A DNA stretch of 64,000 nucleotides from Dictyostelium discoideum. Lineage: Eukaryota. The DNA lies in contig CM000152.2 in the NCBI GenBank assembly GCA_000004695.1, positions 2,048,001 through 2,112,000 on the forward strand. The letters are read 5' to 3'. The notes beneath the pieces are model-generated. The model saw only the letters and a list, made by a program, of their open reading frames with translations. It was not told where the DNA came from and ran no database searches. The position numbers and the translations under genes were made by a program. This document shows, piece after piece, positions 9,701-58,028 of the stretch (the stretch's first letter is position 1; every line of letters begins with the position of its first letter).

Positions 9701-10201
9701 ATTCAAAACCACCACTAAAATTTGGGGATTAAAAATTTTTTTTTTATTTTTTTTTATTTTTTTTTTTTATGAAATTTTTTTAAAAAAAAAAAAAAGAATT
9801 CAAAAAAAAAAAAAAAAAAAAAAAACAAAACTTGTGCACGATATTTTTCTAACTATTATTAATTTTATTACAACGAATATTTTTGTGAGGTATTTTATCA
9901 AAAAAAAAAAAAAAAAAAAAAAAAATTTTTTAAAAAAAAACAATAATAAAAACAATAGATACAAATATATTAATAGTCCCTTTTAAATTCAAAATAATAA
10001 CAAATCTTAATAATTTGTTTATATAGACTTAATTTGGTATTAATTTGTAAATATATAAAAAAAACCCCTCTCTCCCCCTCTCTCAAAAAAAAAATATAAA
10101 AAAAAATTATAATAAATCCCCACAAAAGTAGTAATAATAAAAAAAAAAACAAATAAAGAAAAAAGATAAAGAAAATTTAATATATATATATAAAGAAAGA
10201 A

Positions 10202-11798: not shown

Positions 11799-12751
11799 AT
11801 GTCAGCATTATCCATTATTTCAATTATAATTGGATGGATATATTTTGCATGTTGGAGTCTTTCATTTTATCCACAAGTTATTTTAAATTTTAGAAAAAAA
11901 AAGTAAATTAATTTTAATTAAAATTAATTTTATAATTTCATAATTAAATAATTAAATATTAATTTTTTATTTTTTATTTTTATTTTTTTTATTTTAAAAG
12001 TGTTATAGGTTTATCATTTGATTTTTTATTATTTAATATAACTGGATATGCATGTTATTCAGTATTTAATAGTGTACTTTATTTTGATAAATTAGTAAAG
12101 AATGAATATTATGATAAATACGGACCACCAATACCAGTACAACAGAGTGATATAGCATTTGCAATACATGGTTTTGTATTGACTGCAATAACGATTATAC
12201 AATGTTTTATATATGATAGAGGTAATCAAAAGAATTCTAAATTGGGTATTGGAATAGCGACACTTATTTGGGTGTCATTAATTGTTATGACTATATTAGG
12301 TTTCTCAAATGTATTCACATGGCTATGGGTAATAAACTACTACTCATATGTTAAACTATTTATAACTTTTATAAAGTATATACCTCAAGCTTATTTAAAT
12401 TTTAAAAATAAATCAACAAGTGGTTGGAGTGTACATAATGTTTTATTGGATTTCAGTGGTGGTGTATTATCTTTATTACAAATGTTTTTAGATGTTGCTG
12501 ATTCTGGAAATTGGAATATATTCACTGGTGATCCTGTAAAATTAGGTTTATCTTTATTTAGTATTGCTTTTGATATATTATTCATAATTCAACATTATAT
12601 TCTATATCGTAATCCAAAATCAAAAGGTTATCAAAATTTAAATGATAATAATATTCCAAATAATAATAATAATAATAATAATAATATTAATAATAATACC
12701 CCTCATCAAATTATTATAAATAATAGTTTAATTGGTGAAGAGGATCAATAG
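11799..12751 (+). CDS. ctns: Cystinosin-like lysosomal PQ-loop transporter. Structure is join(11799..11902,12001..12751).
   Basis: Exon 1 ([34 protein letters not shown]) contains the first PQ-loop motif and ends at a GTAAAT donor at 11903. A TTTTAAAAG acceptor lies at 12000. Exon 2 is in frame (phase 2) with ORF 12179..12751 and contains the second PQ-loop ([19 protein letters not shown]) and 7-TM-like hydrophobic segments. The product is 284 aa. Confidence 0.75.
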
Positions 12752-13218
12752 TTTTTTTTTTTATTTTAAAAAAAAAAAAAATAGTAAGATTATTTATAAT
12801 AATAATAATAATAATAATAAAAATAATAATAGATAAACCAATAAAAAAAACACATATTTAGTTATGTGTTTTGTATTTAATTAATTGTAAAAAAAAAAAA
12901 AAAAGACTTTATTTTTATTTTATTTTATTTTATTTTATTTTATATTATTTTTTTGGGTAGGTGGGTGAAATTTATTTATTTAAAATATTCATCAGTTTCT
13001 TTTATAATAATATTTAATTCTCTTGGACTCTATATTCCTTATTAGTTTTACCTTCACTTAAACTATTAATTTTTTTTTTTTGAAAAAAAAAAAAAAAAAA
13101 AAAAAAAATTTAACAAATTCGGAAATTTTAGTTTGGAATTAAAAAAAGAGAAAACAAATTTGGAAAACTTACAATAATACTGTTATTATATTTTAATTCA
13201 TTAAGTAACAATTATAAA

Positions 13219-13281
<63 letters not shown>

Positions 13282-13352
13282 GTTTTATTTTATTTTTAAT
13301 TATATTACAGAATTATTTTATTTTATTTTATTTTATTATTTTTTTTTTTTTT

Positions 13353-13838
13353 TTATTCAATATTAATTTTAATTTCTTTTTCAAAGGATTGCTTAAAAAT
13401 AGTAATTGTTAAAGTATTATCTTTAAATTGAGCTTTAATTGAGGAGAAATCTAAATTTTTATTACTAACATTAATTGTTTTTTGATATTTTTCAAATTTA
13501 GTTAATTTTGTTTTTTCTTGATTTTCAAATTTAATTTCTTTAAATGCTGAAATTATTAAACGATTATTTTTTACATTAACACTAATTTCTTCTTTATTAA
13601 AATTTAATGGTATTAATGCTTTAATTTGATATTGATTTGGTGTTTCTTGAATTTTTAACTTTGGATTTAATGATGTAAATTTAGATTCAATTATTGAATT
13701 TAATATATTATTAACTTGATTTGATTTATTCTCTTCTTCTTGTTGTTGTTTTTGAATTTCATTATTCTTTTCAAAAATATTATTATTGTCGTTATTAATG
13801 AAATTAATTAAATTTGGTAAAATTATTGAGCAAGACAT
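13353..13838 (-). CDS. Small heat-shock protein (alpha-crystallin/HSP20 domain).
   Basis: This 161-aa ORF has a C-terminal region with an alternating beta-strand pattern typical of the alpha-crystallin domain (ISVNVKNNRLIISAFKE...NVSNKNLDFSSIKAQFKDNTLTITIFK). Its size and N-rich N-terminus match the Dictyostelium sHSP family. The assignment rests on pattern recognition only. Confidence 0.5.
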   Translation of the reverse strand: MSCSIILPNLINFINNDNNNIFEKNNEIQKQQQEEENKSNQVNNILNSIIESKFTSLNPKLKIQETPNQYQIKALIPLNFNKEEISVNVKNNRLIISAFKEIKFENQEKTKLTKFEKYQKTINVSNKNLDFSSIKAQFKDNTLTITIFKQSFEKEIKINIE

Positions 13839-13856
13839 TTTTTTATTATTTTTTAG

Positions 13857-13888
<32 letters not shown>

Positions 13889-14564
13889 TTTTTTTTAAAA
13901 AGAAAATTATTTATTTAAATAAAATTTTATTTATTTATTTTATTTGTTTATTTATATTTTTTGAATATTAAAAATTTAATTTAATTTTTTTATTTATAGA
14001 AATTTAATTTAATCAAAAATTTTTCATATTCGCATTTTTTATTTTCAGACTTTTTGACAATTTTTTAATTTTTTTCGTTTTTCTTAGTTTTCATTTTGAT
14101 TTCACTGAATTTAATTTTTTTTTTCTTCCAAATTTACCAATATAAAAATAATTTTTAATAATTTTTTCTCAAAAAAAAAAAACAAAGAACAATCATTTTT
14201 TTATATTTTAAAAAAACCAAAAAAGGAAAAAAATTAAAACAATCAAGAAAATAAAAAAAAAATGTTTTAAAAAAAGATAAAAATTAAAAAAAAAATTAAA
14301 AAAATAATAAAAAAAAAATAAAAATTTAAAAAAAAAAAAATTTTGATTTGGATCGATTTTAAGATCTCAGACAATTTATGAATTTTATTAAAAATATCAT
14401 ATCCTTAAAAATGAAAACTTTTGATTACTAATTTTAGTTATGATCATTAAAAATATAATAAAAAAAAAAAAAATAAAAAATATAAAAATTTAAAAAATTA
14501 CATTGCAACAATATTTTTTTTTATCCGATTGGGTTTTTATTTTTATTATTTTTTTTTTATTTTT

Positions 14565-14604
<40 letters not shown>

Positions 14605-14791
14605 GGTTTATATATATTTTACTTATTTTTTTTTTTATATTTTTTAAAAAAGACTTAATTTTATTTGGAATTTTCGTCTTTGATTTTTTGATTTAATTAC
14701 TTGAAAAGGAACGCATTTTTTTATTTTATTTAATTTTATTTTTTTTTTTTATTTTTTTATATTAAAAAAATTTTTTAAAATTGAAAATCAA

Positions 14792-14828
<37 letters not shown>

Positions 14829-14974
14829 ATTTTTTTAAGTCCTATTTAATTTTGTTTATTATTTTTTTATCATTTTTTTTGTTTTGTTTTATTTTTTTCA
14901 TTTTTTTTTTTTTTTTTATTATTATTTATTTTAAATTTTTAAAATAATTTTCATTGGAAAAAAAAAACCATACA

Positions 14975-17900
14975 ATGACCAAAGGAGGTAAAAAACCAAC
15001 AGCTCATAAAAAGGTTGTATCAACATTTACAATTCAAGAGCCAGAAGAATTCAAAGATAACACTAGAGAATTAAAAGCTGAAGCTGAAAGAGTTAGACAA
15101 GAAGGATTTAGAAAGATTAAAGAAGAGAAATTACAAAAGGAACAAGCTTTAATCAGAGAAAAGCAAGAGGCTGAAGCAAAGAAAAAATTAGAAGAACAAG
15201 AGAAATTAGAACAAGAACAAAAGAAAAAACAACAAGAAGAAGAGGATAAAAAAAGAAAACAACAAGAAGAAGAGGATAAAATAAAACAACAACAATTGAA
15301 AAAAGAGGAAAAAGAAAAAGAAAAAGCTGCTGCTGCCAATCCAAAATCCTCAAAACTTGATAATAAAAAAGAGGTTGAAGAATCTAAAGTTGTTGAAATT
15401 TCAACTCAACCAACTACCACTACCACCACCACCACCAATCAAGTAAACAACAATAGCAATAATAATAATAATAATGATATTTCATCACCATCAACTCAAT
15501 TAAAGAAACAAAATGGTAAAAAAGTAGTAAAAAGAAAACATAGTACTCAATTAAGTGGATTTGAAATTAGTGAACCATCAAGTTTCGATGATGAACAATT
15601 CAAAATCGATAATGAGGATGTTATTAGATTAAGAACAAAATTCATTAAAGTTACAAAACCAAAGAAAAATAAAAAGAACGCAAGTAAATCTGGTTCACCA
15701 GCAATCATTTCATCAAATACTACTTCAGAATCTGTAACACCACAAAATTTTGCTCAAGAAAATTCTCCACCAACTACAACTCCAGCCACAACTCAAACTC
15801 AAGTAACTGAAAAACCAAAACAACAAGAAGAAGAAAAAGAGGAAGGAGAAAAAGAAGAACCAAAACCAGTTGTTCCAGAAATTAAAAAAATTGGAATTAA
15901 ATCATCACCAAAAGCTGAACAAAAACCACATTATACTATTCCAAAAAAGAATAAACAACAACAACAACCACCAAAACCAACAACCAATGAAGCTAAACCA
16001 GCTGGTGAAACTAAAAAATCAACTGGTAAAAAATCACCAAAACAATCAATAACTAAAAATAAATCTGCTACTTTCACAATTATTGAACCATCATTTGGTA
16101 TTCAAGCTCCCTCATCAAATACTACAACCGCTACTCCAGTTGAAGATTCATCTTCAAAAACTGTTGATTCAACTACTACAACAACCACAACAACCTCTAC
16201 TGCAACCAAAACACCAGCTAAACCAACTCCAACTCAATCTAAAAAGAAACAAAATAAAAAGAAACCATCAACTACAAATAAATCAGATGATGATATTGAG
16301 GGACTTTTAAAACAAATTAATGATCCAAAACAAAGAAAAGTCAAACAACCAACCACTACCGCCACTCCAGTAGTTTCCAAAGAAGATGAAGCTAAAAAAC
16401 AAAAAGCTGCACAAGAATCTGCTGAGAAAAAGAAATTGACTGATCAAAACAAAAAGGAAGCTCAAGAACAAGAAAAGTTAAGAGTTGCTGAAGCTAAAAA
16501 AGTTGCTGATGCAAAAAAAGCTGCCGATGCTGAGGAATCAAAGAAAGCTGCCGATGCCAAGAAAGCTGCTGATGCAGAAGCAAAGAAAGCTGCAGAAGCA
16601 AAGAAAGCTGCTGATGCAGAAGCAAAGAAAGCTGCTGATGCCAAGAAAGCTGCTGCTGATGAAGAAGAAGCAAAGAAAGCTGCTGATGCCAAAAAAGCTG
16701 CCGATGCCAAGAAGGCTGCTGATGAGGAAGAAGCAAAGAAAGCTGCTGATGCCAAGAAAGTTGCTGATGCAGAAGCAAAGAAAGCTGCTGATGCTAAGAA
16801 AGCTGCTGATGAAGAAGAAGCAAAGAAAGCTGCTGATGCAAAGAAAGCTGCTGAAGAAGAAGAAGCAAAGAAAGCTGCTGATATCAAGAAAGCTGCAGAA
16901 GATGCCAAAAAAGCAGAAGATGCCAAAAAAGCAGAAGATGCCAAAAAAGCAGAGGAGGATAGATTAGAAGCAGAGGCAGAAAAGAAAAGATTAGCAGAAG
17001 AACAAGCAAAGAAAGAGGCAGATGCAAAGAAAGCAGAGGAGGATAGATTAGCAGCCGAAGCAGAAAAGAAAAGATTAGAAGGGGAACAAGCAAAGAGAGC
17101 AGAAGAAGATAGATTAGCAGCTGAAGCAGAAAAGAAAAGATTAGCAGATGAAGCAGAAAAGAAAAGATTAGCAGATGAAGCAGAAAAGAAAGAGGCTGAA
17201 GGAAAGAAAGCAGAAGAAGATAGATTAGCAGCTGAAGCAGAAAAGAAAAGATTAGCAGATGAAGAGGCAGAAAAGAAAGCAGCAGAATCAAAGAAATTAG
17301 CTGAAGAAGAAGAAAAGAAAGCAGTAGAGGCCAAAAGATTAGCAGATGAAGAAGAAGAAAAGAGAGCAGCAGAATCAAAGAAATTAGCTGATGAAGAACA
17401 AGCAAAGAAAGCAGCACAAGAAGAAGAAGAGAAAAAGAAATTAGAAGAAGAAGAAGAAAAGAAGAAAGCTGCTTCTGAGCAAGCTGAACAAAAACAAGTT
17501 GCTGAAGATTCTGATAAAAAGAAAGCAGACGAAGCAGAAATTCGTCCATTATCTCATCCAACCCTTTCAAGACCATCTAAAAAATCATCATCGTCATTAA
17601 AGTTAAATAGAGTTGAAACTGAATCAGAGGTCGAAGCATCAAAATCTGAAGAAACCAAAGAAGAGGAAAAACCAGAACCAGAAGAGGAAAAACCAAAAGT
17701 AGAATATAAACCTGATTTTAAACCAGTTGGAGGTATTGATATTTTTGGTGGTGCCAAAATCAATCCAGCCGAAGTTGTTTTAAAGAAAACTACCTCTTCA
17801 AGTAATATCATTGAACATACACCAGCACCAGCACCAGAAGAACAAGGTACATTTAATTTCCGTTCAGTTTTAAAGAATTCAAAATCCAGTGAAAAATTAT

Positions 17901-46569: not shown

Positions 46570-49500
46570 ATGAATTCAATTCATAAACAACATTATACAA
46601 TAAATAGTAATCATTATAATGAAAGTATAAATATAAATTCATTATTATTAAATGATTTAAATGATGAAAAAAGGACAACATCAACCAATAATAAAAGTAA
46701 TAATAATAGCAATAATAATAATAATGAAACATTAGAAGATATAATTGAATTTAATAATAATAATTGTAATGGTGATATGAAATATTTAGATTTATCAAAG
46801 AGAATGATTTATTCATTAGAATTAATGATGATACCAGAGATAGAGAATAGATTTCAAGGTGATTTTAAATCAATATCGATATTGAATTTAAATGATAATT
46901 TATTAGGAGAGATACCAGAATCATTGAAACAATTGACACAATTAATATCATTATCGATCCGAGGCAATCATATATTGGAGATACCGTTATGGTTTCCAGA
47001 GGAATTTAAATTACTTAGAAAATTGGATGTATCACATAATGCAATCTCGTCGGTGCCAAATACATTTAATAAATTCTCAATATTGGAGGATTTAAATCTA
47101 TCAAATAATTATATCTCCTATATTCATCCATCGCTATTTCCAGAGGGTATAATGAGATTGAATCTATCGAATAATCTTTTTAGAGAGGTTGAGCTACCAC
47201 CATGGTTCGAGTCATTGTTGACATTGGATATTAGTGGTAATAAATTGAAACATTTGGGTAATTTACCATTTCATTTGGTTAGAGTATCAATAGATGATAA
47301 TCATTTGGAATCGATTGATCATAAGGTGATCCTACGTAATAAGGATTTAGCATTGAAATTTAATCAATCATTTAGTGATATCGTTTTGGAAAGAATTTAT
47401 CAATGTTGGTATACTGGTGATCCAGTATTGGATTTATCAGGATTAGGTATGTGTGTTGTACCACCGATCCTAGGTATGTTGGTACATTTAACTCATTTGG
47501 ATCTATCGGGTAATTGTATTTCAGTGTTACCACCGGAATTGGCAAATTTAACAGAATTGGTTAGATTAGATTTAAGTTTTAATATTTTAACAACATTACC
47601 ACTATACATTGTATCCTATAAGAGATTGGAACATTTGGATCTACAAGGTACCCTTGATACATTGGTATCACCACCACGTCGTATAGCGGAAACTGGTAAA
47701 TTAATTGATATTCAACGTTATTTTCATGATTTATTTCAGGGTGAACCATCTTATCGTGTTAAACTTATGATTGTCGGTCAAGAGAATGTTGGTAAAACAA
47801 GTTTAGTTAAATGTTTAAAAATGAAAAAGAAATTCTCTAAAAATTCTGATCATTTAGGTACAAATGTTTCAACCGATGGTATTGATATCGATGAAATTAA
47901 ATTTAATTTAGATATTGAATTACCTTCAAATCCAAGTTCAAATTCTTTAATTTCAAATTCATTATCAAATAGTTCAATCTCTTCTAATAATATTAATTCA
48001 AATAATAATATAAATGTTCATTCAAATGGAGGAGGTATTAATTCAAATGGTGTAAATTCAAATAGTCAAATAAATATAAATAGTAGTAGTGGTAATATTC
48101 ATTCAAATGGTGGTGGTGTTGGTAATGTTAACTCATCAGGTGGTATACATAGTAATAATTCATCAGGTGGTGGTGGTGGTTCAAATAGTTTTTTAAATAA
48201 TACAAATTCAAATGGTACAAATAATAATAGTAGTAATTTAAATATAAATACAAATAGTAATAATGTAAATTCAAGCGGCGGCGGCAATAATTATCATCCA
48301 CCAGTTGGTACAAATACTTCAATGAGTAATATTCAAGTTATTGGAAGTTCAGGTAGTAATTTAGGTTCAGGTAGTAATTTAAGTATAGGTGGTAGTAATG
48401 GTAATAATAATAATAATAGTGGTGGTAGTGGTACAATGGTAAATCAAAGAGTTACAATGTCAATTTGGGATTGTGCAGGTCAAGAACTTTATTATACAAG
48501 TCATCAAATGTTTTTAACAGATTCAGCATTGTATGTTGTAGTTTGGAATCTTTGTAAACCAGAAGTTAATAGTCGTGTTGAATTTTGGTTACATTCAATT
48601 CGTTCAAAAGCAGAGAATGCACCAATACTTTTAATTGGTACTCATTTAGATGATTATTTAGCAACTCATTCCGAATCAGAGTTGGATGAAATTTTAGAGA
48701 ATATCTATAGTAAATATTTTAGAAAGTTTAGATTAAAGGGTATTTCAATTCTAAGTTGTTCAACTGGTGTTGGATTCGATAATTTCTTGGACCTTTTGAA
48801 AAAGACCGTGGTGGAATTACCATCATTAAAACAATCTCTGCCAGAACTTTATTTAAAACTTGAGAAATTAATCATTAAAAAACGTTCAACATTGGTACCA
48901 CCAGTTTTAACTTGGCAAAGTTTCTCACAAATGGTACTTTCAAATTTGGATTTTCATGATGAAATTCATGTTAAAGTTGCTACTAAAGCATTGGTACCAT
49001 TGGGTTCAATTTCTTTCTTTGATGAACCAGGTCTCGATCAATATGTATTTTTAGATCCACAATGGTTAACAGGTGTTTTCTCTTCAATCATTACAACAAA
49101 ACATAAATTCATTAAAGATGGTGTTTTAAAAAAAAGTGACCTTTATCAAATTTGGAAACCACCTCATTTCATTGAAGATGAAGGTTTACATTCACTTTTA
49201 ATTAATTTATTAGAAAGATTTGAATTAATGTTTCCATTAGATAGTGATTTAGTTTCATTATCTTCAAGTAATGGTAATAATGGTAATAGTTATGTAAATA
49301 ATAATAATAATAATAATAATAATTCAAATAATAATAATAATGGTAGTAATAAATCTTCACCATTTAAAACAACACCATCGTCACCATCAACTTTAAGATT
49401 AGTTGATTCAAAATCAAAAGGTAGTCATAGTTCAAATCCAATTTTAAGTGGTAATAATAGTTCATCAAAAAATTCAACATCAACTAAAAGATCAATTAGT

Positions 49501-52500
49501 GGTTCACCATTACGTTCAAGATCAAATTCTGATCTTGATTTAATTGGTGGTGGTGGTGGTTCACCAATTAATGGTAGTAGTATTGATTATAGTTCAAAAT
49601 CAAATACATTAACACCAGGATTATTTAATGAATTAAATCAAAAATTTATAATTCCATCACAATTACCAGAGATAAGACCATCATTTGGTTTACTTTGGCC
49701 ATCACTTGATCATTCGCGTGTTGAATTTAATCGTTGGATTCAATTATCATTTGCACCAGCTGGTTTATTTAGTAGATTATTAATTCGTTTATTAATTAGT
49801 AAAGAATTTGATATGAAACCAATTCTTTATTGGAGAAATGGTGTAGTTGTTGAATCACAATCTGGTAAATCATTCCTTTCAACCTCTACTGCTTTAATTG
49901 AAATGGTACCAAGTTATGCAAATTGTAGTTCAACTATTAAAATTAGTGTTAGAGGTGATCGTCGTACTGGTAGAGGTTTATCAGCAAAACTTTTAAGATT
50001 AATCGTTGAAATTGCTGATACACTTTGTACAAGTTGGTATCATTTAGAAACAAATCAAGTTATACCATGTCCACATTGTATTAATAAACCAAATTGTACA
50101 TTATTTTCATTGAGTGATTGTGAAGCAGTTGCAAGTAGTGGTGTTTGGTATTTACTTTGTGGTGATAGAAAAATTAATTTCGAAACTTTTGTACCAGATG
50201 TTGCAATGTCTGATTTTTGGGGTAGTGGTAGTAAGAAATTCAATTATGATCAAATTAAAATGCATAAAGAAAAAAGAATTCTATCAATTAAACCTGCATC
50301 ATTTGGTAATAATCAAATTCAATTTGAAGTTAGAGTTCCACCATCACCACCACCACCACCAGTACAACAAATTATTAATAATGGTGCTGATGATAATATA
50401 ACAACAACTACATTGGCAGTTAATAATATTAAAGTTTTAGAAAGTGGTGGATCACAACCACCATCACCAAGAAGTGGTAAAGATGTTACACATGAATTAC
50501 CAATTATTAATCGTTTAGAAATTATTCAACCAACAAGTGATGAATCATCATTAATTCAAGTTGAATTTGATCATAATAATCAAACTTTAGTTATAAGTGG
50601 TACTTATAAATATGGTGATTTATTAGAGATTGAATTTGAATCACCAAAATTAATTGGTAGAGGTGCATCTGGTAAAATTTATCGTGCAAATTTAAATGAT
50701 ACAATGGTTGCAGTTAAACAATTAGAAGTGGTTGGAGAGGATGCACCAAGAATTTTCTCAGAGTTTAGAAGAGAAATTCATGTTATGTCTGATCTTAAAC
50801 ATTCAAACGTTGTAAATTTATTAGGTTTTACATTATCACCATTTACAATGGTAATGGAATATATCGATTGTGGTGATCTTCATAAATTTTTACATTCACC
50901 TATTGGTGATCAACTTAATGGTAATTGGGCTTTAATTTTGAAATTGGCTTTAGATATTGCAAAAGGTATGGAATTTCTTCATTCAGTTACACCACCATTA
51001 CTTCATCGTGATTTAAAGAGTCCAAATGTTTTACTCTCAATGAAAGATGGTGTTTACACTGCAAAAGTTGGTGATTTTGGTTTATCATCAAGAATGTTTA
51101 TTCAAGCTTTGAAACATAAATTACGTAATTTCCCAGTTGGTAATATTACTTGGGTTGCACCAGAAATTTTAAGAGAAGAAGAATATACTGTTAAATCCGA
51201 TGTTTATGCATTTGGTTTAATTTTACATGAACTTTTAACAAGAAAACATCCATATAGAGAATTTAATTATTCAATGGTATCTCTTCAAGAGGATGCAATA
51301 AAGAATGGACTTCGTCCAACTATTTCACCATCTTATACTCAAACTGTTACAGGTCATGAATATTGTGGTTTAATTCAAGATTGTTGGGATAGTGATATTG
51401 ATAGAAGACCAACTTTTAATAAAATTGTTAAAAGAATTAAACAAATTATTGGTCGTGATGTTAATAATATTTTAATGGTAAATGGTGTTTCAGTTGTTAG
51501 TGGTATTCAATCACCAAATTCATTAGCTGATAGTCAACCATTCCATTATCATCAACAACAACAACCAAGTTTAAATTCTACAAATCAATTACAACAACAA
51601 CAATATTCATCAGTTTTAACATCACCAAGATCAAATTTATCAGATTCATCAAATTCATCACAAAATATTGCAAATAAAAGTTTAAATAATATTAGTGCAA
51701 CAAGTTTAGGTGATTTAGGTGGTAATGATGAAAATTTAGGTGGTCAATTACAATATAGTATGCGTGTACCACAACCAGAAGCAAAAGTTAATCAATTAGT
51801 ATGGGAAGTCAATTCACGTCGTGTTTGGGGTGGTTGTGAATCTGGTGAAATTATAGTTTGGAATGCAGAGAATGGTAATCAAATTTTCCGTGAACAAAAA
51901 TTACATCCAGGTCCAATTAGATCATTGGCATTGGTAAATCAAGAAGATATTTGGTCAGCAGGTGGTATTGGTCCACAACAAAGTACAATTAGAATTTGGA
52001 ATGCTTGGCGTTTTAATCTTGATGATCAATCTGGTACAAAATCTGATTTTATCACTAAAAAAGGTAGAGGTGGTTCAACATTTGGTAGAAAATCTTGGAG
52101 ATTACGTTGGTTTGTCCTATCAAGATTTGATAAAACCTTGAAATACTATAGTAAACAAACTGATAAAGAACCAAGTTGTTCACTCATTTTAGAGGGTGCT
52201 TGGTTAGAAGAAATTAGTCCACCAGGTTATAAAGTTAGTCTTCATTTAATTCATCCAGAAAAAAGAACAATGGAAATGGAATTTAAGAGTGAATCTGAAA
52301 AATCATCTTGGCTAACTGCAATCAATCGTGTTATCAATCAAAATATACCACTCTATGAAATTGCACTTGGTAAACAAATGACAAGTGGTAGTGAAAATGA
52401 TTATATCACAAATTTACTATCGGTTGGTCCAAATGTTTGGGTATCACTTAAAGAAACACCATCAATTTTGGTTTATAATGTAAAGAGTAAAGAATTGGTT

Positions 52501-53013
52501 ACAAAAATCTCTTTAAATGATGATCAATCCAGTGATCAATGGGGTAAAACTGGTGCTGTAAATATGATGTTGGTTAATAATTTCGTTTGGATAACTGGTG
52601 GTTCAAAATTGACTCAAATTGATTCACAATCTTATCAACTCTTGGAAGTACATGGAAATCATTATTCAAAACCAATCACCTCAATGGCATTGGTTGAAAA
52701 AAATGTTTGGATCTCTTGTGAAGATGAATCACTTTCAGTTTGGGATGGTGATACTGGTTCCTTTATTAGAAAAGTTGGTTCTCCAATTGGTTCACCAACT
52801 AAGCCAACCGTTTACACTAAACTTTTATATTTCAGTGGTTATGTTTGGGCTTGTACTCAAGGTTCAATTCATATTTATTGTATTCATTCATTAACTTGTA
52901 AAAAGAAAGTTGAATCAAAAAATCATCCAAATAGTATTGTAGATTTAATTAAAGTTTTCCAACAAACTGTTTGGTCATGTTGTGGTACAAATAATGTTTG
53001 TATTTGGTCTTAA
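46570..53013 (+). CDS. Roco-family protein (LRRK2-like) with LRR, Roc GTPase, COR, protein kinase, PH-like and WD/beta-propeller regions. Single 6.4-kb exon.
   Basis: N-terminal LRRs (LDLSGNCISVLPPELANLTELVRLDLSFNILTTLP) precede the Roc P-loop LMIVGQENVGKTSLVKCL. A low-complexity N/S/G-rich insert of about 170 aa then separates the P-loop from the G3 motif SIWDCAGQE and the G4 motif LIGTHLDD. A COR region follows, then a kinase domain (LIGRGASGKIYRA...VAVKQL...HRDLKSPNVLL...VGDFGLS...WVAPE) and a PH-like segment (WRLRWFVLSRFDKTLKYYS...WLTAINRV). The C-terminal region has WD-like W-x-x-x-G repeats. The product is 2147 aa. Confidence 0.9.
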   Translation: MNSIHKQHYTINSNHYNESININSLLLNDLNDEKRTTSTNNKSNNNSNNNNNETLEDIIEFNNNNCNGDMKYLDLSKRMIYSLELMMIPEIENRFQGDFKSISILNLNDNLLGEIPESLKQLTQLISLSIRGNHILEIPLWFPEEFKLLRKLDVSHNAISSVPNTFNKFSILEDLNLSNNYISYIHPSLFPEGIMRLNLSNNLFREVELPPWFESLLTLDISGNKLKHLGNLPFHLVRVSIDDNHLESIDHKVILRNKDLALKFNQSFSDIVLERIYQCWYTGDPVLDLSGLGMCVVPPILGMLVHLTHLDLSGNCISVLPPELANLTELVRLDLSFNILTTLPLYIVSYKRLEHLDLQGTLDTLVSPPRRIAETGKLIDIQRYFHDLFQGEPSYRVKLMIVGQENVGKTSLVKCLKMKKKFSKNSDHLGTNVSTDGIDIDEIKFNLDIELPSNPSSNSLISNSLSNSSISSNNINSNNNINVHSNGGGINSNGVNSNSQININSSSGNIHSNGGGVGNVNSSGGIHSNNSSGGGGGSNSFLNNTNSNGTNNNSSNLNINTNSNNVNSSGGGNNYHPPVGTNTSMSNIQVIGSSGSNLGSGSNLSIGGSNGNNNNNSGGSGTMVNQRVTMSIWDCAGQELYYTSHQMFLTDSALYVVVWNLCKPEVNSRVEFWLHSIRSKAENAPILLIGTHLDDYLATHSESELDEILENIYSKYFRKFRLKGISILSCSTGVGFDNFLDLLKKTVVELPSLKQSLPELYLKLEKLIIKKRSTLVPPVLTWQSFSQMVLSNLDFHDEIHVKVATKALVPLGSISFFDEPGLDQYVFLDPQWLTGVFSSIITTKHKFIKDGVLKKSDLYQIWKPPHFIEDEGLHSLLINLLERFELMFPLDSDLVSLSSSNGNNGNSYVNNNNNNNNNSNNNNNGSNKSSPFKTTPSSPSTLRLVDSKSKGSHSSNPILSGNNSSSKNSTSTKRSISGSPLRSRSNSDLDLIGGGGGSPINGSSIDYSSKSNTLTPGLFNELNQKFIIPSQLPEIRPSFGLLWPSLDHSRVEFNRWIQLSFAPAGLFSRLLIRLLISKEFDMKPILYWRNGVVVESQSGKSFLSTSTALIEMVPSYANCSSTIKISVRGDRRTGRGLSAKLLRLIVEIADTLCTSWYHLETNQVIPCPHCINKPNCTLFSLSDCEAVASSGVWYLLCGDRKINFETFVPDVAMSDFWGSGSKKFNYDQIKMHKEKRILSIKPASFGNNQIQFEVRVPPSPPPPPVQQIINNGADDNITTTTLAVNNIKVLESGGSQPPSPRSGKDVTHELPIINRLEIIQPTSDESSLIQVEFDHNNQTLVISGTYKYGDLLEIEFESPKLIGRGASGKIYRANLNDTMVAVKQLEVVGEDAPRIFSEFRREIHVMSDLKHSNVVNLLGFTLSPFTMVMEYIDCGDLHKFLHSPIGDQLNGNWALILKLALDIAKGMEFLHSVTPPLLHRDLKSPNVLLSMKDGVYTAKVGDFGLSSRMFIQALKHKLRNFPVGNITWVAPEILREEEYTVKSDVYAFGLILHELLTRKHPYREFNYSMVSLQEDAIKNGLRPTISPSYTQTVTGHEYCGLIQDCWDSDIDRRPTFNKIVKRIKQIIGRDVNNILMVNGVSVVSGIQSPNSLADSQPFHYHQQQQPSLNSTNQLQQQQYSSVLTSPRSNLSDSSNSSQNIANKSLNNISATSLGDLGGNDENLGGQLQYSMRVPQPEAKVNQLVWEVNSRRVWGGCESGEIIVWNAENGNQIFREQKLHPGPIRSLALVNQEDIWSAGGIGPQQSTIRIWNAWRFNLDDQSGTKSDFITKKGRGGSTFGRKSWRLRWFVLSRFDKTLKYYSKQTDKEPSCSLILEGAWLEEISPPGYKVSLHLIHPEKRTMEMEFKSESEKSSWLTAINRVINQNIPLYEIALGKQMTSGSENDYITNLLSVGPNVWVSLKETPSILVYNVKSKELVTKISLNDDQSSDQWGKTGAVNMMLVNNFVWITGGSKLTQIDSQSYQLLEVHGNHYSKPITSMALVEKNVWISCEDESLSVWDGDTGSFIRKVGSPIGSPTKPTVYTKLLYFSGYVWACTQGSIHIYCIHSLTCKKKVESKNHPNSIVDLIKVFQQTVWSCCGTNNVCIWS

Positions 53014-54942
53014 ACAATAAATTTGAATTTATTTAAAAAAATAATCCTTATGATTTAAATTTTTTTTTTTTTTAAACTCTTTTGTTTTTGGTGAATTCAA
53101 TATGTTGTTAATGTTGCAATTAAATAAAATCAACCATCTCTTGAAATTGTAAAACCTTGAATAGTTGATAATTCTTTATCGGTTTTCTTTTAGAATCTTT
53201 GATGTAAGAAATTGGTATCCTTCTTGATAATTTTGTTATTATTGTTATTCTAATTATTGAAATTGTGATTATTATTGGTGTTAATTAATATTACAAAGTG
53301 AAATGATGATAAAGATATTTGTGTGTGTAAGATGGTGGTGAAATTTCATTGTGAAGTTGATGTTAATTAATTCTTTTAAACTTAAAACATGGTGATGCTA
53401 CTTTGTACCGGAATAGAGGATGGTTTTGAAATAATAAAACAATACCTATATTACCAAATTAAGTGAGGTTAGCTAATTTAGTGAGGTTAGAACCACCAAA
53501 TAAACCAGTTCCAGGGATTAAAATTGAAACTAAAAAACAACCAATTGTTTGTTGAGATGGTTGAGCCGAACCATTAAAATCCATCTTCAGTAGTTGTAGA
53601 TTCAAGTTGGTTAAATGATGGGAATAATTTATTTTTTTTATTTATTTTTTCAAAAAATTTATTTTTAAAATAAATTATTATTATTATTATTATTTGAATA
53701 ATTATTGCTGATTAAGTTGTCATTGTTTAAAATTTTCAAGGAAAGAGCTGTTTGATGATAATATATTGTTGGTTGGTTTGAGTCTGTATTGGTTTCATTA
53801 CAATAGTTGATGGTAGTGAAAATTATTTAATATTGTGACATTGCTGCAATGATGTGATATAAAATAGAAGGTGTTGATGAATTTAATATTCATTATTGCA
53901 ACAGCATTATTTGATTTTTTTAAACCAAGGAAAGATTTGGGCCCAAAAGATTGAAATAAAAGATTCCTTCCCCAATGGTACCTCTTCGAAAAAAAACAAT
54001 TGTTAATGTACCTCTTTTAAATTAATATAGTTGATAATTTAAACAATAATGAAAAAAAAAATATTTTATTAAATCTTTTAATTTTTATTTTTTAGTTTTT
54101 GATTTCTAATTTTTATTTATAAATGATGTCAACTTCTTTTCAAAATGCCATAGTGCATAGATAAATATTTCCTTTCACTAAGTTTAGAAATAATTTTTAT
54201 GTGATGATCAACCTTTCTTAATGATATAGTGCATAGATAAATCTTTCCTTTCTATATCATTTGATTGGTATTAATTCATATATTATATTATCTAGATTAT
54301 AATTGACTTTAAACCATTTTTATTTTACTTTATAAAAAAAATAATATTAAAATTAGATTTAAATTGCTTGTTATTTTTTTATTTGTTTTTTTTTTTTTTT
54401 TTTTTAATCTCTTTACCTTTTTATTTTTATATTTTAAATTATCAATCAACTTTTATCTAAATTTATAATTGTTACAGTTAGATTTTTTTTTCTATTTGTG
54501 TTTTTTTTTTTTACATTTGTACAATAGATTATTTTTTTTTTTTTTTTAAAAAAAAGTGTCTTTTAATACTGGACCTTTTTCAATTTTTTAAATTATTTGA
54601 AATCAAAAAAAGTTATTTTTACTATTTAAGTAAAATCTAATAGCCAAAAAGTAAATTTCCAAATCTGGGAATATTCAAAAGGTGTATTATTTAAATATAT
54701 TCTTCGTTTATCTTAACAAAAGCCCTAAAACTTAATTTTTATTTTTTAAATTTTAAAAAAATAAAAAAAAACATATATTTTAAGATTTTCTTTTTTTTTT
54801 TAATAATTTGTTTGAGAAATAAAATAATAAAAAATCACAAAGAATTTTTAATTTATTTTATCATATTTTTTATTATAAAAAAATATTTTTACTATTATCA
54901 TTATTGAAAGATATCCAGTTTTATATATTTTATTATTTAAAA

Positions 54943-55188
54943 TTAAATTGATAAAATAGGTATAAAATCTAATGTTTTCTTACAATTAAAGAAGAAATGA
55001 CTCAATGTCCAATCTTCATGATTTGGATAGTTTACTGGTAGACATCTTAAATGATATCTAAACATCGTGTATTTTGTTTTGGGATCTTTTAAGTGTTGGG
55101 TTTTGATTGTGTAGTTTTTTATGAACTGAGCAGATTCTTCATCCAAGTGAACTTGTGACTTTTTTACTATTTCGGCGTAAGAGCTCAT
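54943..55188 (-). CDS. Small hypothetical ORF (81 aa) next to the tRNA gene.
   Basis: An in-frame TAA stop lies immediately upstream of the ATG. The ORF uses C-ending codons (TAC, AAC, TTC, ATC, ACC, CAC) that are typical of highly expressed Dictyostelium genes. It sits inside a GC-elevated island at 54.9-55.5 kb. No recognisable domain is present, and it could be a retroelement remnant or a real small protein. Confidence 0.3.
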   Translation of the reverse strand: MSSYAEIVKKSQVHLDEESAQFIKNYTIKTQHLKDPKTKYTMFRYHLRCLPVNYPNHEDWTLSHFFFNCKKTLDFIPILSI

Positions 55189-55499
55189 TTCGATGTGTTA
55201 TTTATTATTTTGAGCTTTGAGATGATAGATCGAAAGATCTTGATGATCTGATGATGAATACAGAAAGATTGAAAGAAGATGACCGAGATTGGAGGTGGAA
55301 AGGTATAGATTAATTTTAGTCAATAACCTCTAATCTTTTTAGGTTTTTTTCAAAGGTCTTAATTTGGTGTTTTGGGTGGTGTGATTTAGGATCTGTAAAT
55401 CGTAAGTGGTGCTGTTATCTTTATAGTTGAACATGATTTCTTCAATGTTGATTTTCCGAAGTTCGTATTTTTCCCAAAATACCAAAACCCCAAAATTTT

Positions 55500-55570
55500 G
55501 TGCGTATGCTGGGAATCGAACCCAGTTCGCATCCGTGGCAGGGATGCATCATACCACTAGACCACATACG
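55500..55570 (-). tRNA. tRNA-Gly (anticodon GCC).
   Basis: The minus-strand sequence GCGTATGTGGTCTAGTGGTATGATGCATCCCTGCCACGGATGCGAACTGGGTTCGATTCCCAGCATACGCA folds as a cloverleaf with a 7-bp acceptor stem GCGTATG/CATACGC. The anticodon loop is CTGCCAC (anticodon GCC). The T-arm is GGGTTCGATTCCC (B box), and there is an A-box-like TGGTCTAGTGG. The sequence is highly similar to eukaryotic tRNA-Gly-GCC. A T-run (TTTTGGGG) lies just 3' on the minus strand, consistent with a pol III terminator. ORF 55427..55633(+) is an artefact overlapping it. Confidence 0.92.
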
Positions 55571-55635
55571 CTTTTTTTTATGATATTTAAAAAAAATATC
55601 TTAAAAAATTTTGATTTAAGAAGAAGCAACTAAAA

Positions 55636-55735
55636 ATTGCGTTATTCCATCCAAAAAAAAAATTTTGATTTTTCTCTATGTGCACAAGCGTTATTCCATT
55701 CAAAAAAAAAAAATTTTGATTTTTCTAAATTAACC
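55636..55735. repeat. Two tandem ~48-bp direct repeats, 65-165 bp upstream (5') of the tRNA-Gly gene.
   Basis: The two units are attgcgttattccatccaaaaaaaaaattttgatttttct and agcgttattccattcaaaaaaaaaaaattttgatttttct, at about 85% identity. Confidence 0.85.
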
Positions 55736-56045
55736 CAAAAATGATTTTTATTTTTTTTAAAAATTTGATTTTTTAAATTTTAAAAAATAGAAATAAGACA
55801 ATGTCGAAAATGATTTGGAAACTTGGGTAACAGAATAACATTCTCAAAATACCAAATGATTTTATTTTAATAAAGTTATTATCTTAATTTTTTTTTTTTT
55901 TTTTTTTTTTTTTAACCCACCAAAAAATAAAAATAAAAATAAAGAATAAAAAATAATAATAAACAAAAAAATTATTACAAGCAAACTGTTTCAAAAAACA
56001 AAAATAAAAAGAAAAGTCAATAGAAATAGTGTATGATTTTTTGTT

Positions 56046-56076
<31 letters not shown>

Positions 56077-56522
56077 TTATAATTTTTTTTTTTTAATTTT
56101 AATTATTTTTATTTTTTTTCTTATTTTATTTTTTATTTTTTTTTTTATTATTATTTTTAATTTTTTTTTATTATTTTTATTATTTTTTATACATTAATTT
56201 TTTTTTAAAAAAAAATTATTTAATTTAAATTAACAAAGATTTTGGCGCACAGATTTCAACAAAGATTTTTTTATTAATCAATTCCACATGATTCAATAAA
56301 GGGGGTAAGAAAATCTAATATATTTGAAAATACCGAATGGAAAAAAAGATATTTTTAATAAAAACTTTTTTTTTTTAAAACTAATTTTTTTATTTTTCTT
56401 TTTATTTTTCTTTTTTTTTTTTTTTTTTAAATTTTTTAAATTTTTTTTCCATTGCCCAAACTATTAAATAATTTTTTTTTTTTTTTGGTTTTTCAATTGT
56501 CACCTGACTTACATAAAAGAAA

Positions 56523-57867
56523 ATGAAATTACTTATTTTAACTTTATTTTTAGCTACTATTGTTTTAGCTCAAGCTTTAACGTAAATATTAAGATTTATT
56601 ACTTTAATATATAATATTTTCAAACAAACAATCAAAAAAAAATAAAAATAAAAATAAAAAATAAAATAAAATAAAAAAATAATTATAATAATAATAATAA
56701 TAAAAGAATAATAAAAAAAAATAAAATAAAAAAATAAAAAAATAAATATTAATAATAAATTTTAATTAAAATAGAGTACCATTAAACTTCCATCAAGCTT
56801 CAAGAGAATCTAGAAGAAGAGTTCCACAAAAATGGTCAAACAGATTATCTGCTCTCAATGCTGGTACCACAATCCCAATTTCAGATTTTGAAGATGCTCA
56901 ATACTATGGTGCCATTACCATTGGTACCCCAGGTCAAGCCTTCAAAGTAGTTTTCGATACTGGTTCATCCAACTTGTGGATTCCATCAAAGAAATGTCCA
57001 ATCACTGTTGTTGCATGTGATTTACATAACAAATATAACAGCGGTGCCTCAAGCACATATGTCGCCAACGGAACTGATTTCACCATCCAATACGGTAGTG
57101 GTGCTATGTCAGGTTTTGTCTCTCAAGATTCCGTCACTGTTGGTTCATTAACTGTTAAAGATCAATTATTCGCTGAAGCCACTGCCGAACCAGGTATTGC
57201 TTTCGATTTCGCCAAATTCGATGGTATTTTAGGTCTTGCTTTCCAATCCATCTCTGTTAATTCAATTCCACCAGTCTTTTACAACATGTTATCACAAGGT
57301 TTAGTTTCATCAACACTCTTCTCCTTCTGGTTATCAAGAACTCCAGGTGCCAACGGTGGTGAACTCTCATTCGGTTCAATCGATAACACCAAATACACTG
57401 GTGACATTACCTACGTCCCATTAACCAACGAAACCTATTGGGAATTCGTTATGGATGACTTTGCTATCGATGGTCAATCAGCTGGTTTCTGTGGTACTAC
57501 TTGTCACGCAATTTGCGATTCAGGTACATCACTCATTGCTGGTCCAATGGCTGATATTACTGCCCTCAATGAAAAATTAGGTGCTGTCATCTTAAATGGT
57601 GAAGGTGTCTTCTCTGATTGTAGCGTTATCAACACCTTACCAAATGTTACCATCACCGTTGCTGGTCGTGAATTTGTTTTAACTCCAAAAGAATACGTTT
57701 TAGAAGTTACTGAGTTCGGAAAGACTGAATGTTTGAGTGGATTTATGGGTATCGAGTTAAACATGGGAAATTTCTGGATCCTTGGTGATGTTTTCATCTC
57801 TGCTTACTATACTGTATTCGATTTTGGTAATAAACAAGTTGGTTTCGCAACTGCCATTCAAGGTTAA
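56523..57867 (+). CDS. ctsD: Cathepsin D (lysosomal pepsin-family aspartic protease) preproenzyme. Structure is join(56523..56581,56775..57867).
   Basis: Exon 1 encodes the signal peptide MKLLILTLFLATIVLAQAL-T and ends at a GTAAAT donor at 56582. The acceptor is AAAATAG at 56774. Exon 2 encodes a propeptide, then ...DAQYYGAITIGTPGQAFKVVFDTGSSNLWIPSKKC...IQYGSGAMSGF...FDGILGLAF...AICDSGTSLIAGP...FWILGDVFISAYYTVFDFGNKQVGFATAIQG. Both catalytic motifs are present (DTGS and DSGT). The total of 383 aa matches my memory of Dictyostelium cathepsin D. Confidence 0.9.
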
Positions 57868-58028
57868 ATTTTTTTAATTAATTTATATTTAAGATAGAAA
57901 TAAAACTAAATAATAGAACAATATATGTGCATTGTTTTTTTTTAATATATTTAGTTTAATTATTTTTTTTTTTTTTTTGTTGTGGATGTTGAATTAAAGA
58001 TGGAAAATAAGAAAAAAAAAAAAATTTG

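Follow-up and report, generated by a model that had tools for sequence, protein, structure and literature searches.

Genes and Features at the Locus

The stretch of DNA analysed here (64 kb of Dictyostelium discoideum AX4 chromosome 3, hereafter the window) contains a single tRNA gene, a tRNA-Gly(GCC) gene, with a roco kinase gene on one side of the locus and ctsD (CATD_DICDI) on the other. The comparison locus L003 is 100% identical to the window. The gene had been recognised in a sequence-only reading of the window, and is borne out by both ARAGORN and Rfam; its internal B box is GGTTCGATTCC, and its sequence is 100% identical, in a syntenic place, in six other Dictyostelium genomes. The use of tRNA genes as landing pads in Dictyostelium is already known, and in the established model integration is guided by TFIIIC and TFIIIB bound at the tRNA gene, a picture which the results presented here leave unchanged and in which TFIIIC would play the same part at this locus. 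Among known non-coding RNA families, nothing other than the tRNA was matched in the GC-elevated island downstream of the gene or in the repeats upstream of it (Rfam, E <= 1). The tRNA gene and the features on its downstream side are as follows.

55501..55571, minus strand: tRNA-Gly(GCC) gene (ARAGORN, 55500..55571; Rfam RF00005, 63.6 bits)
55448..55471, minus strand: conserved block AAAAATACGAACTTCGGAAAATCAAC (tRNA strand), from sister-genome identity
55189..55437, minus strand: 5'UTR of a TRE3-type element (70-71% DNA identity over 334 nt to the sequences upstream of ORF1 in L010 and L009)
55084..55188, minus strand: TRE3-type ORF1 codons 1-35 (MSSYAEIVKKSQVHLDEESAQFIKNYTIKTQHLKD), from homology to P0122
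54955..55092, minus strand: ORF2 C-terminal zinc-finger remnant, approximately aa 824-879 of 1059 (tblastn)
54943..55188, minus strand: 81-aa chimeric ORF across the ORF1-ORF2 junction (ORF list)

A TRE3-Type Relic Downstream of the tRNA Gene

The 3' flank of the tRNA gene had been described as unusually rich in GC and poor in open reading frames. The elevated GC is confirmed, at 0.30-0.35 across ~55000-55500 against 0.11-0.17 on either side, but the island extends past the boundary first drawn at 55190, as far as ~54955; over ~54955..55437 it has ~32% GC compared with 11-17% in its surroundings. Just outside that first boundary, the island contains the 81-aa ORF. Both the island and this ORF can be accounted for by the presence of a TRE3-type relic, and, as judged by homology, the island is a decayed non-LTR retrotransposon of that type.

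The homology comes from several parts of the element. When the 81-aa ORF was used for a HMMER search of 1.8 billion representative proteins, an ORF1-type match was obtained (E = 6e-6), and its residues 1-39 match the ORF1 N-terminus, while residues 32-76 match the C-terminal zinc-finger region of ORF2. In tblastn comparisons, the ORF1 remnant and the N-terminus of P0122, an ORF1-like protein, are 71% identical over 35 aa (E = 3e-12), and the remnant has 40% identity to ORF1 of the full-length TRE3 in L012; the ORF2 remnant is 52% identical to P0123 aa 326-379 (E = 8e-12), and 48% identical to aa 824-879 of the L012 ORF2 (E = 6e-11). The two remnants are fused in frame at an AAAGATC microhomology, located at ~55084..55092 by DNA alignment to the ORF2 of L013, and a further internal deletion takes out the CxxC cysteines of the ORF2 remnant. 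When 5.8 billion proteins were searched by a word-based method, the 81-aa ORF had no homologue among them, and its chimeric nature became visible only by the exhaustive HMMER search.

The established model places TRE3 integration tens of bp beyond a B box, on its downstream side. TRE3 elements have been reported 14-305 bp downstream of tRNA genes (PMC5006619, Table 1), and in the same orientation as the tRNA gene (PMC5911963). The relic agrees with the TRE3 family (TRE3-A to -D, the L1-like elements of D. discoideum) on both counts, as its 5' boundary (~55437) lies ~63 nt, +/- 8 nt, downstream of the tRNA 3' end at 55501, within the published range, and its ORF1 and ORF2 remnants are on the minus strand together with the tRNA gene. 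Related elements are found downstream of tRNA-Asp (L010), tRNA-Thr (L013) and tRNA-Ser (L012) genes, all in the orientation of the tRNA, the L010 element lying ~90 bp downstream of its tRNA-Asp gene. These comparison elements are classed as TRE3-type by their position after the three tRNA genes, the ORF2 in L012 carrying RVT_1, and the relic shares homology with them in its 5'UTR, ORF1 N-terminus and ORF2 zinc finger. Unlike a full TRE3, it is only ~480 bp long, being 5'-truncated, internally deleted and 3'-truncated, with neither a poly(A) tail nor a recognisable duplication. It is ~70% identical to the closest elements compared, which come from other strains, and has 40-48% protein identity to the full-length AX4-type TRE3.

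Relative to full copies, the relic is ~56 nt short at its 5' end, and on the 3' side of the ORF2 remnant it lacks ~180 codons together with the 3'UTR and the poly(A) tail. Homology stops at ~54955, inside ORF2, and no poly(A) tail, 3'UTR or target-site duplication belonging to the relic was found there; the homology to sister genomes at the Gly locus ends at ~55445, and comparison of AX4 with these genomes beyond the relic gave no colinear matches between ~53350 and 55448. The missing tail and duplication fit a relic with secondary deletion, and are still compatible with a TRE3 family origin. As a 3' truncation is not produced by target-primed reverse transcription alone, later deletions must be assumed. 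On this reading the element inserted ~63 bp past the tRNA gene, just after the conserved sequence that occupies the place of an external B box. It has since decayed through the loss of ~56 nt at its 5' end, a deletion at the 7-nt AAAGATC microhomology joining ORF1 codon 35 to the ORF2 zinc-finger region, a second small deletion within that region, and the loss of all sequence 3' of it.

The last 40 codons of the 81-aa ORF (54943..55065) are annotated as the hypothetical protein DDB_G0279469 (XP_641644.1; P0121, corresponding to aa 42-81). It could be argued that the island is a genuine small gene, either DDB_G0279469 or the whole 81-aa ORF, representing a domesticated ORF1-ORF2 fusion that is transcribed from the retained TRE3 5'UTR, since 81 codons stay open over two deletions with the junction in frame, a native ATG and 5'UTR are kept, and a 40-aa gene is called here in the AX4 annotation. 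Against this, the only homologues found for it are retrotransposon ORFs, the zinc-finger cysteines are deleted, the locus is missing from all six sister genomes, and an in-frame junction arises without selection one time in three. We therefore regard a functional small gene as very unlikely, and the annotated 40-aa gene is most likely not a real gene; indicating DDB_G0279469 as a piece of a dead retrotransposon is of value for annotation.

The Conserved Block at the External B-Box Position

Outside the tRNA itself, the sole conserved sequence is a block at the position of an external B box (ex B). Its core, CGAACTTCGG, is situated at 55456..55465, 35-44 nt downstream of the tRNA. The block is present in 7/7 genomes; L001 shares 24 identical nt, L031 shares 22, and L032 and L029 share 14-15, while the D. 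firmibasis version reads CCGAAGTTCGG. It is a near-palindrome, CGAA(C/G)TTCG, whose central base is not the same in D. firmibasis as in the D. discoideum group. The GC-rich sequence which follows the motif in D. firmibasis gave no Rfam match.

In D. discoideum, 66% of the tRNA genes have an external B box, located ~41 bp downstream and with the consensus GTTCRAnYC (PMC3159450), and an element of this kind had been suggested here. The suggestion is supported by distance, with the TTCG core 40-43 nt after the tRNA compared with the published ~41 bp, and by strong conservation in seven genomes, with TRE3-type insertions 0-25 nt beyond the block; it is not supported by the sequence of the block, which does not fit the consensus. 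On the tRNA strand, CTTCGGAAA agrees with GTTCRAnYC at only four of its eight specified positions; GTTCGTATT, on the opposite strand, agrees at six, and the D. firmibasis sequence GTTCGGAAA at five, whereas the comparison ex B sites of L010 (GTTCGATTC) and L013 (GTTCAATTC) match all eight, and that of L012 (GTTCGGGTC) seven. Two bolder readings would make CGAA(C/G)TTCG a functional non-canonical site for TFIIIC, in either orientation, or for another factor, and the beacon for TRE3 at tRNA genes that have no consensus ex B, and would make the 81-aa fusion, with its retained TRE3 5'UTR, an expressed micro-protein; we consider these proposals very improbable.

Two Small Oligo(A)-Ended Inserts Upstream of the tRNA Gene

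The 5' flank of the tRNA gene had been read as carrying two tandem 48-bp repeats. There are indeed two copies, though not as tandem units of 48 bp; the copies share 37 nt (55639..55675) and 39 nt (55688..55726), have a start-to-start spacing of 49, and are separated by 12 unrelated nt, CTATGTGCACAA. The sequence GCGTTATTCCATYC occurs in the window only at these two copies. A simple tandem-repeat model was rejected, as the two units show no relationship in their 5' parts and the pair is not called by Tandem Repeats Finder. A shorter word recurs in the flank, namely the exact 15-mer AAAAAATTTTGATTT, which begins at 55603, 55657 and 55708. Three copies within 120 nt are therefore not due to chance, with five observed in the whole window against 0.16 expected. 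The word is AT-rich, and its two further copies lie elsewhere in the window. With this word denoted X, the flank is composed as follows.

55603..55617, plus strand: target-site duplication copy 1, X = AAAAAATTTTGATTT (exact triple repeat; -32 to -46 from the tRNA 5' end)
55618..55656, plus strand: insert A, 35 nt AAGAAGAAGCAACTAAAAATTGCGTTATTCCATCC followed by oligo(A) (from sequence anatomy)
55657..55675, plus strand: target-site duplication copy 2, X + TTCT (distal for insert A, proximal for insert B)
55676..55707, plus strand: insert B, 12 nt CTATGTGCACAA, then GCGTTATTCCATTC, then oligo(A) (from sequence anatomy)
55708..55726, plus strand: target-site duplication copy 3, X + TTCT (19/19 identical to copy 2)

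The upstream repeats are thus two foreign oligo(A)-ended inserts, each flanked by a duplicated target word. A check for target-site duplications had been proposed together with the sequence-only reading, and here the duplications are exact (15/15/15 and 19/19) around both foreign segments. Seen from the tRNA, each insert has its oligo(A) run (55653 and 55702, respectively) at its far end, and on the strand that does not carry the tRNA gene. The insertion points lie 46 and 50 bp upstream of the tRNA, insert A starting at -47 and insert B, before the presumed arrival of A, at -51.

The tRNA-targeting element TRE5-A was formerly known as DRE, and the C-module is the 3' end of TRE5-A and TRE5-C. 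TRE5-A integrates 47 +/- 3 upstream, with 5' deletions, non-templated nucleotides, variable duplications and opposite orientation (PMC5391098, PMC5911963), the orientation of TRE5 being opposite to that of the tRNA gene (PMC5911963). The two inserts resemble this pattern in their starts at or near the primary site, in their orientation with the poly(A) end distal, and in their oligo(A), their duplications of variable length (15 and 19 bp) and the additional nucleotides at the 5' junction of one of them. They differ from the TRE5-A copies usually catalogued in that their element sequence amounts to no more than 35 nt and 14 nt, which is far shorter. Mutations in the C-module have been named at bases T15, C26 and A35 (PMC3159450); counted from its 3' end, insert A has T at 15, C at 26 and A at 35, all three matching the named bases only at zero offset, and the predicted 4-bp helix that holds both C26 and T15 agrees as well. 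Insert A is thus a candidate for the 3' end of the TRE5-A C-module, and from position, orientation, anatomy and these three bases the most likely source of the inserts is TRE5-A or a relative sharing its C-module. Exact and fuzzy searches found no other copy of insert A in the window or in ~250 kb of Dictyostelium loci, nor is there a TRE5 copy in the window or in these other loci. The insert sequence gave only chance matches, in unrelated non-AT-rich contexts, in public metagenome, bacterial-genome and viral collections, and it was not found in the full text of papers and their supplements.

The arrangement would be explained by two events of target-primed reverse transcription, both of them starting from one and the same nick in the bottom strand, at the T6 run that pairs with 55603..55608. 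The first would have been event B, leaving 14 nt of the element 3' end, 12 unrelated nt and oligo(A), with a 19-bp duplication and a 5' junction at -51; event A would then have entered the proximal duplicate, leaving 35 nt of the element 3' end and oligo(A), with a 15-bp duplication and a 5' junction at -47. Both inserts would be extreme 5' truncations, non-functional from insertion onward. The nick deduced in this way, TTTTTT/AAG, resembles the site of the mammalian L1 endonuclease, TTTT/AA, and 5' truncation, a poly(A) tail and 15-19-bp duplications are common to L1 and the events proposed here, whereas the site would in this case be chosen by the polymerase III complex on the tRNA gene, and by L1 only loosely by sequence.

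Empty Site and Independent Insertions in Sister Genomes

In the closest sister genome, L001, the target word is represented by just one orthologous copy, ATAAATTTCGATTT, and insert A and insert B are both absent. When both inserts are removed from the AX4 sequence, it aligns end to end with L001 with a score of 62.5, compared with 48.5 for the actual sequence, and L001 is, as judged from this alignment, the empty site for the upstream inserts. A three-sequence MAFFT alignment had suggested a diverged orthologue of one repeat unit in L001, an idea that was dropped since the global alignment favours AX4 minus the inserts. Alignments of DNA as AT-rich as this are uncertain, and it speaks against the empty-site reading that, in an ungapped repeat search, a part of the upstream sequence of L001 also matched the proximal flank of L001 itself at 71%.

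These comparisons bear on the possibility that the upstream repeats arose from native sequence by local tandem duplication, through slippage or end-joining with filler, perhaps with a regulatory function for the tRNA gene or ctsD and without participation of any retroelement. Such an origin would agree with the regular spacing of ~50 nt, the three target-word copies following one another at 54 and 51 nt and a weaker fourth one being present at 55759, and with the lack of an element copy elsewhere in the sequences searched; furthermore, insert B shares with insert A only 14 nt and the A run, and for this insert a local duplication with filler DNA could be an alternative. However, the segments that separate the duplicated words are related neither to one another in their 5' parts nor to any local sequence, both of them end in oligo(A) adjoining the duplicated word, and the junctions at -47 and -51 have the TRE5 orientation, while the three published C-module bases match. 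In addition, the repeats are conserved in none of the six sister genomes, of which the closest resembles an empty site, and because of this absence the position-specific regulatory reading that had also been offered for the repeats is not supported. A purely local origin is accordingly unlikely in our view, and retrotransposition of TRE5-type tails remains the preferred explanation.

The six sister genomes have different insertions at the same tRNA-Gly gene. In a D. citrinum strain, an insert of 25 nt that ends in oligo(A) and has an exact duplication of 12 bp starts 47 bp upstream of the orthologous tRNA. On the downstream side, the sequence directly after the conserved motif differs in 7/7 genomes, and TRE3-type ORF2 fragments are present there in four of them. 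The seven-genome comparison therefore offers a clean case of one tRNA gene hit independently and repeatedly in close lineages.

In L031, one of the sister genomes, an LTR-like element is found 14 bp upstream of this same tRNA gene, and D. discoideum tRNA genes are themselves targeted by two LTR elements, DGLT-A 13-33 bp upstream and Skipper-2 8-23 bp downstream (PMC5006619). On these grounds the AX4 flanks might derive from DGLT-A (upstream) or Skipper-2 (downstream), as fragments or solo LTRs, but the island starts ~63 bp downstream and is homologous to non-LTR ORF1 and ORF2 rather than to gag-pol, and the flanks have no similarity to the LTR-like sequences upstream of the tRNAs in L031 and L010. 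The LTRs of DGLT-A and Skipper-2 are 200-270 bp long, with TG..CA ends and 4-5-bp duplications, in contrast to the upstream inserts, which are 26-35 nt long, end in oligo(A) and are flanked by duplications of 15-19 bp. A solo LTR of either element was rejected on size, ends, gag-pol homology and position, and we consider an LTR origin of the flanks extremely unlikely.

The proposal that the flanks contain a fragmentary tRNA-targeted element, one of the readings made from the sequence alone, is thus supported on both sides of the gene, by TRE3-type homology 3' and by TRE5-type anatomy 5'. The tRNA-Gly(GCC) gene has very probably served as a repeated landing pad, with a TRE3-type relic downstream and two tiny TRE5-type poly(A)-ended inserts upstream. 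The main value of this reading lies in annotation, as it explains a GC-rich patch and a repeat beside a tRNA gene of the reference genome. It also implies that TRE5-type tails of 14-35 nt, together with their duplications, can hide upstream of tRNA genes, and since such tails are below the size usually catalogued, counts of TRE5 integrations may be underestimates.

The tRNA-Gly locus

The observation made at the tRNA-Gly(GCC) gene from sequence alone is real, and its main interpretation, that fragments of tRNA-targeted elements lie beside the gene, proved right. The gene itself, as first read, is called concordantly by ARAGORN and Rfam as one gene and lies, with its flanks, in a 4-kb gap within an AT-rich window that is dense in genes:

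46570..53013, + strand, ORF of a ROCO-type kinase (2147 aa), on one side of the gap
55501..55571, - strand, tRNA-Gly(GCC) gene
56974..57867, + strand, exon of the cathepsin D gene (ctsD), on the other side of the gap

The cathepsin D exon shows 98% identity to the protein that represents a cluster in which CATD_DICDI of D. discoideum AX4 is also found. Glutamine synthetase III, encoded in the window by a 735-aa ORF, has an identical gene on a 6.43-Mb chromosome of GCA_054883475.1, and this chromosome matches the window at 100% identity across the tRNA-Gly and its flanks. The window accordingly belongs to chromosome 3 of D. discoideum AX4 or of a strain indistinguishable from it. These flanks are a further instance of well-known element families, in the reference genome, to which our analysis adds a probable spurious gene model, very short tails of likely TRE5 type and, where an external B box would lie, a motif that is conserved but departs from the consensus.

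The TRE3-type relic downstream of the tRNA

A GC content of 0.30-0.35 over ~55000-55500, against 0.11-0.17 on both sides, bears out the GC-elevated island described downstream of the tRNA. On the strand of the tRNA (-) the island holds an 81-aa ORF (54943..55188), for which a word-based search of 5.8 billion proteins gave zero matches. That this ORF is a chimera emerged from an exhaustive HMMER search against 1.8 billion representative proteins, with residues 1-39 having 67% identity to the N-terminus of the 392-aa ORF1-like protein P0122, and residues 32-76 having 47-62% identity to the C-terminal zinc-finger region of the ORF2 fragments P0123 and P0124. The loci encoding P0122 and its relatives served as comparison DNA, in which relatives of the island element follow tRNA-Asp (locus L010, with the element 5' end ~90 bp from the tRNA), tRNA-Thr (L013) and tRNA-Ser (L012), the last being a full-length relative with a 417-aa ORF1 and a 1059-aa ORF2 containing a reverse-transcriptase domain. 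TRE3 elements are defined by a position 14-305 bp downstream of tRNA genes (PMC5006619), in the same orientation (PMC5911963). The non-coding part of the island aligns as follows:

55189 to about 55437, - strand, relic 5'UTR, 70-71% identity across 334 nt with the 5'UTRs of the elements in L009 and L010

At its 5' end the element lacks about 56 nt. Codons 1-35 of ORF1 match P0122 with E = 3e-12, and the ORF2 residues (about 824-879) are matched with E about 1e-11; the junction between these two parts is a 7-nt microhomology, AAAGATC, found in both parent sequences, and the zinc-finger region has undergone an additional deletion with loss of cysteines. Since homology ends at about 54955, the element has lost ~180 codons along with its 3'UTR and poly(A) tail, and the extent of alignment to TRE3-type elements thus describes a copy that is 5'-truncated, internally deleted and 3'-deleted. 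Judged by its homology to TRE3-type 5'UTR, ORF1 and ORF2, the island is a TRE3-type relic, in agreement with the first of the two alternatives of the sequence-only reading, a fragmentary tRNA-targeted element. The AX4 gene model DDB_G0279469 (40 aa, XP_641644.1; 54943..55065, - strand) covers the final 40 codons of the chimeric ORF. All of it derives from what is left, in degenerate form, of the zinc-finger region of a TRE3-type ORF2, and it probably does not represent a gene.

The TRE3-type 5' ends (GAAGATCCATATAATTTTGAAC...) in L010 (about 7615..7630), L013 (about 10465..10487) and L012 (about 9815..9840) follow immediately on A runs of 12-23 nt on the sense strand, an odd feature for a poly(A) retrotransposon to have at its 5' junction. 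Just past the ORF2 stop codon in L012, ~37 nt of the tRNA-Ser downstream flank are repeated.

Upstream inserts with target-site duplications

Two 48-bp repeats had been reported upstream of the tRNA. Two copies do exist, but the shared part amounts to 37 and 39 nt (55639..55675; 55688..55726) with 12 unrelated nt between them, and Tandem Repeats Finder made no call on them. Absent from that account was an exact 15-mer, AAAAAATTTTGATTT, present three times here (55603, 55657 and 55708). Across the window it has five occurrences where 0.16 would be expected, and a cluster of three within 120 nt is not chance. Outward from the tRNA 5' end (55571), the order is as follows:

-1 to -31, 31 nt, followed at -32 to -46 by the target word X, AAAAAATTTTGATTT
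insert A, 35 nt (AAGAAGAAGCAACTAAAAATTGCGTTATTCCATCC) and oligo(A), followed by X and TTCT
insert B, 26 nt (CTATGTGCACAA GCGTTATTCCATTC) and oligo(A), followed by X and TTCT, then unique sequence

In both inserts the oligo(A) lies at the end distal to the tRNA. No further copy of either was found in the window or in any fetched locus, and for this reason both are regarded as foreign. X is duplicated exactly around each insert, over 15 bp at A and over 19 bp at B, so that the check for target-site duplications was positive; what had been taken for repeats is a pair of inserts, poly(A)-ended and flanked by duplicated target sequence. In the simplest order, insert B would have come first, with its 5' junction at -51, and insert A second, into the proximal duplicate of X, with its junction at -47. 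We infer that both events derive from one common bottom-strand nick at TTTTTT/AAG, a site similar to that of an L1-type endonuclease.

The closest sister genome compared (L001, 96% identity in the kinase gene) contains the target word once, as ATAAATTTCGATTT, and its upstream flank can be aligned over its full length with AX4 minus both inserts, scoring 62.5 versus 48.5 for AX4 as it is. This comparison supports an origin of A and B by insertion and, with the duplications and oligo(A), favours the tRNA-targeted element fragment suggested for the 5' flank. The same arrangement is seen independently in one D. citrinum strain, where L030 (5098..5146) carries an exact 12-bp duplication, TTTAGAAGGTGT, flanking a 25-nt oligo(A)-ended insert (ATGCATCATCCAATTCAAC + A6); the distance from the start of this insert to the orthologous tRNA-Gly downstream is 47 bp. 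The upstream sequence of the other D. citrinum strain (L029) is quite different.

TRE5-A as a probable source of the inserts

The integration window of TRE5-A is 47 +/- 3 (PMC5391098), and we counted both junctions (-51 for B, -47 for A) inside it. TRE5-A also shares with the inserts their orientation, 5' truncation, extra 5'-junction nucleotides and variable duplications (PMC5391098, PMC5911963, PMC3159450). No TRE5 sequence was found in ~250 kb of fetched Dictyostelium DNA or in the text of published papers, and searches of metagenomes, bacterial genomes and viral contigs with the insert sequence gave chance matches only. Four bases of the TRE5-A C-module are given from the element 3' end: T15 and C26 (stem III), and A35 and C38 (stem I) (PMC3159450). 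Insert A, truncated short of position 38 and hence compared at T15, C26 and A35, carries all three, with a joint match only at offset 0 among offsets -8 to +8. The predicted fold of its 35-mer sets C26 and T15 on opposite strands of one 4-bp helix (G27-C13, C26-G14, A25-U15, A24-U16), a predicted placement suggestive of the expected target of paired stem-disrupting mutations. This agreement is suggestive but short of proof. Insert A is quite likely of TRE5 origin, and we lean towards insert B being a separate retrotransposition and not a local duplication with filler.

The orthologous tRNA gene and its conserved motif

The tRNA-Gly is identical in all seven genomes. Apart from it, conservation among the orthologous loci is confined to a block of ~24 nt (55448..55471), with its CGAACTTCGG core (55456..55465) 35-44 nt downstream of the tRNA; complete divergence sets in 0-25 nt past this motif.

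Elements beside the orthologous tRNA-Gly
AX4, window: TRE3-type relic at 54955..55437 and upstream inserts
D. cf. discoideum, L031: different 5'-truncated TRE3-type piece downstream; LTR-like element 14 bp upstream
D. citrinum, L029: TRE3-type ORF2 that breaks off in the reverse-transcriptase domain
D. citrinum, L030: C-terminal fragments of TRE3-type ORF2
D. cf. discoideum, L032: C-terminal fragments of TRE3-type ORF2
"D. discoideum" GCA_054859385.1, L001: AT-rich sequence downstream, possibly an empty site

Repeated independent insertions of this kind are what is known of Dictyostelium tRNA genes as landing pads. For external B boxes the published distance is about 41 bp downstream of the tRNA, and the consensus is GTTCRAnYC (PMC3159450). 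The proposal that the core, cgaacttcgg, is an external B-box-like element holds for position and conservation but fails on consensus, with 4/8 matches on the tRNA strand and 6/8 on the other; the boxes after tRNA-Asp, -Thr and -Ser in fetched loci score 8/8, 8/8 and 7/8. The D. firmibasis equivalent, CCGAAGTTCGG, is nearer to the tRNA-Ser variant. We read the block as a diverged, still constrained element at the external B-box position. After the motif in D. firmibasis (L002, 8480..8560) is a GC-rich stretch, GCTGGGCGGGGGCTTAGTTCCACAGCTGAATCATACTGCCTCCGTGGCC, with no Rfam or tRNA match.

Other features of the compared loci

In D. cf. discoideum GCA_054859205.1, a sequence beginning TGTAATGAAACACGTATATCC... 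starts ~14 bp upstream of both tRNA-Gly (L031, 3822..4150) and tRNA-Asp (L010, 7060..7467) and looks like a DGLT-A-type LTR; L010 also holds the pol gene of an LTR retrotransposon (11827..15064). L001, labelled D. discoideum, has ~96% identity to AX4 in roco coding and ~85% in non-coding sequence, differs further by an inversion and several kb of insertions, and probably represents a lineage of its own in the D. discoideum complex. In L001 (7822..11448) and D. firmibasis (L002, 8593..11376), the whole segment with tRNA-Gly and ctsD (window 53027..57973) is turned around between the flanking roco and glutamine-synthetase genes; two D. citrinum and two D. cf. discoideum genomes have the window orientation. 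Beside roco, L001 (14318..14428) also carries 111 bp of the ctsD 3' end as an inverted copy, with 94% identity to window 57759..57869. These arrangements suggest an inversion that is recurrent or polymorphic.

A block of ~60 nt (55978..56040, CAAGCAAACTGTTTC...GAAAAGTCAATAGAAATAGTGTATGATTTTTT), near-invariant in AX4, L001, L032 and both D. citrinum genomes and without an Rfam match, may represent either a small RNA gene missing from the annotation or a promoter element of ctsD. A conserved T-run with AACCCACC (55888..55921), about 60 nt upstream of the block, is similar to the DUSE motif of Dictyostelium small-RNA genes.
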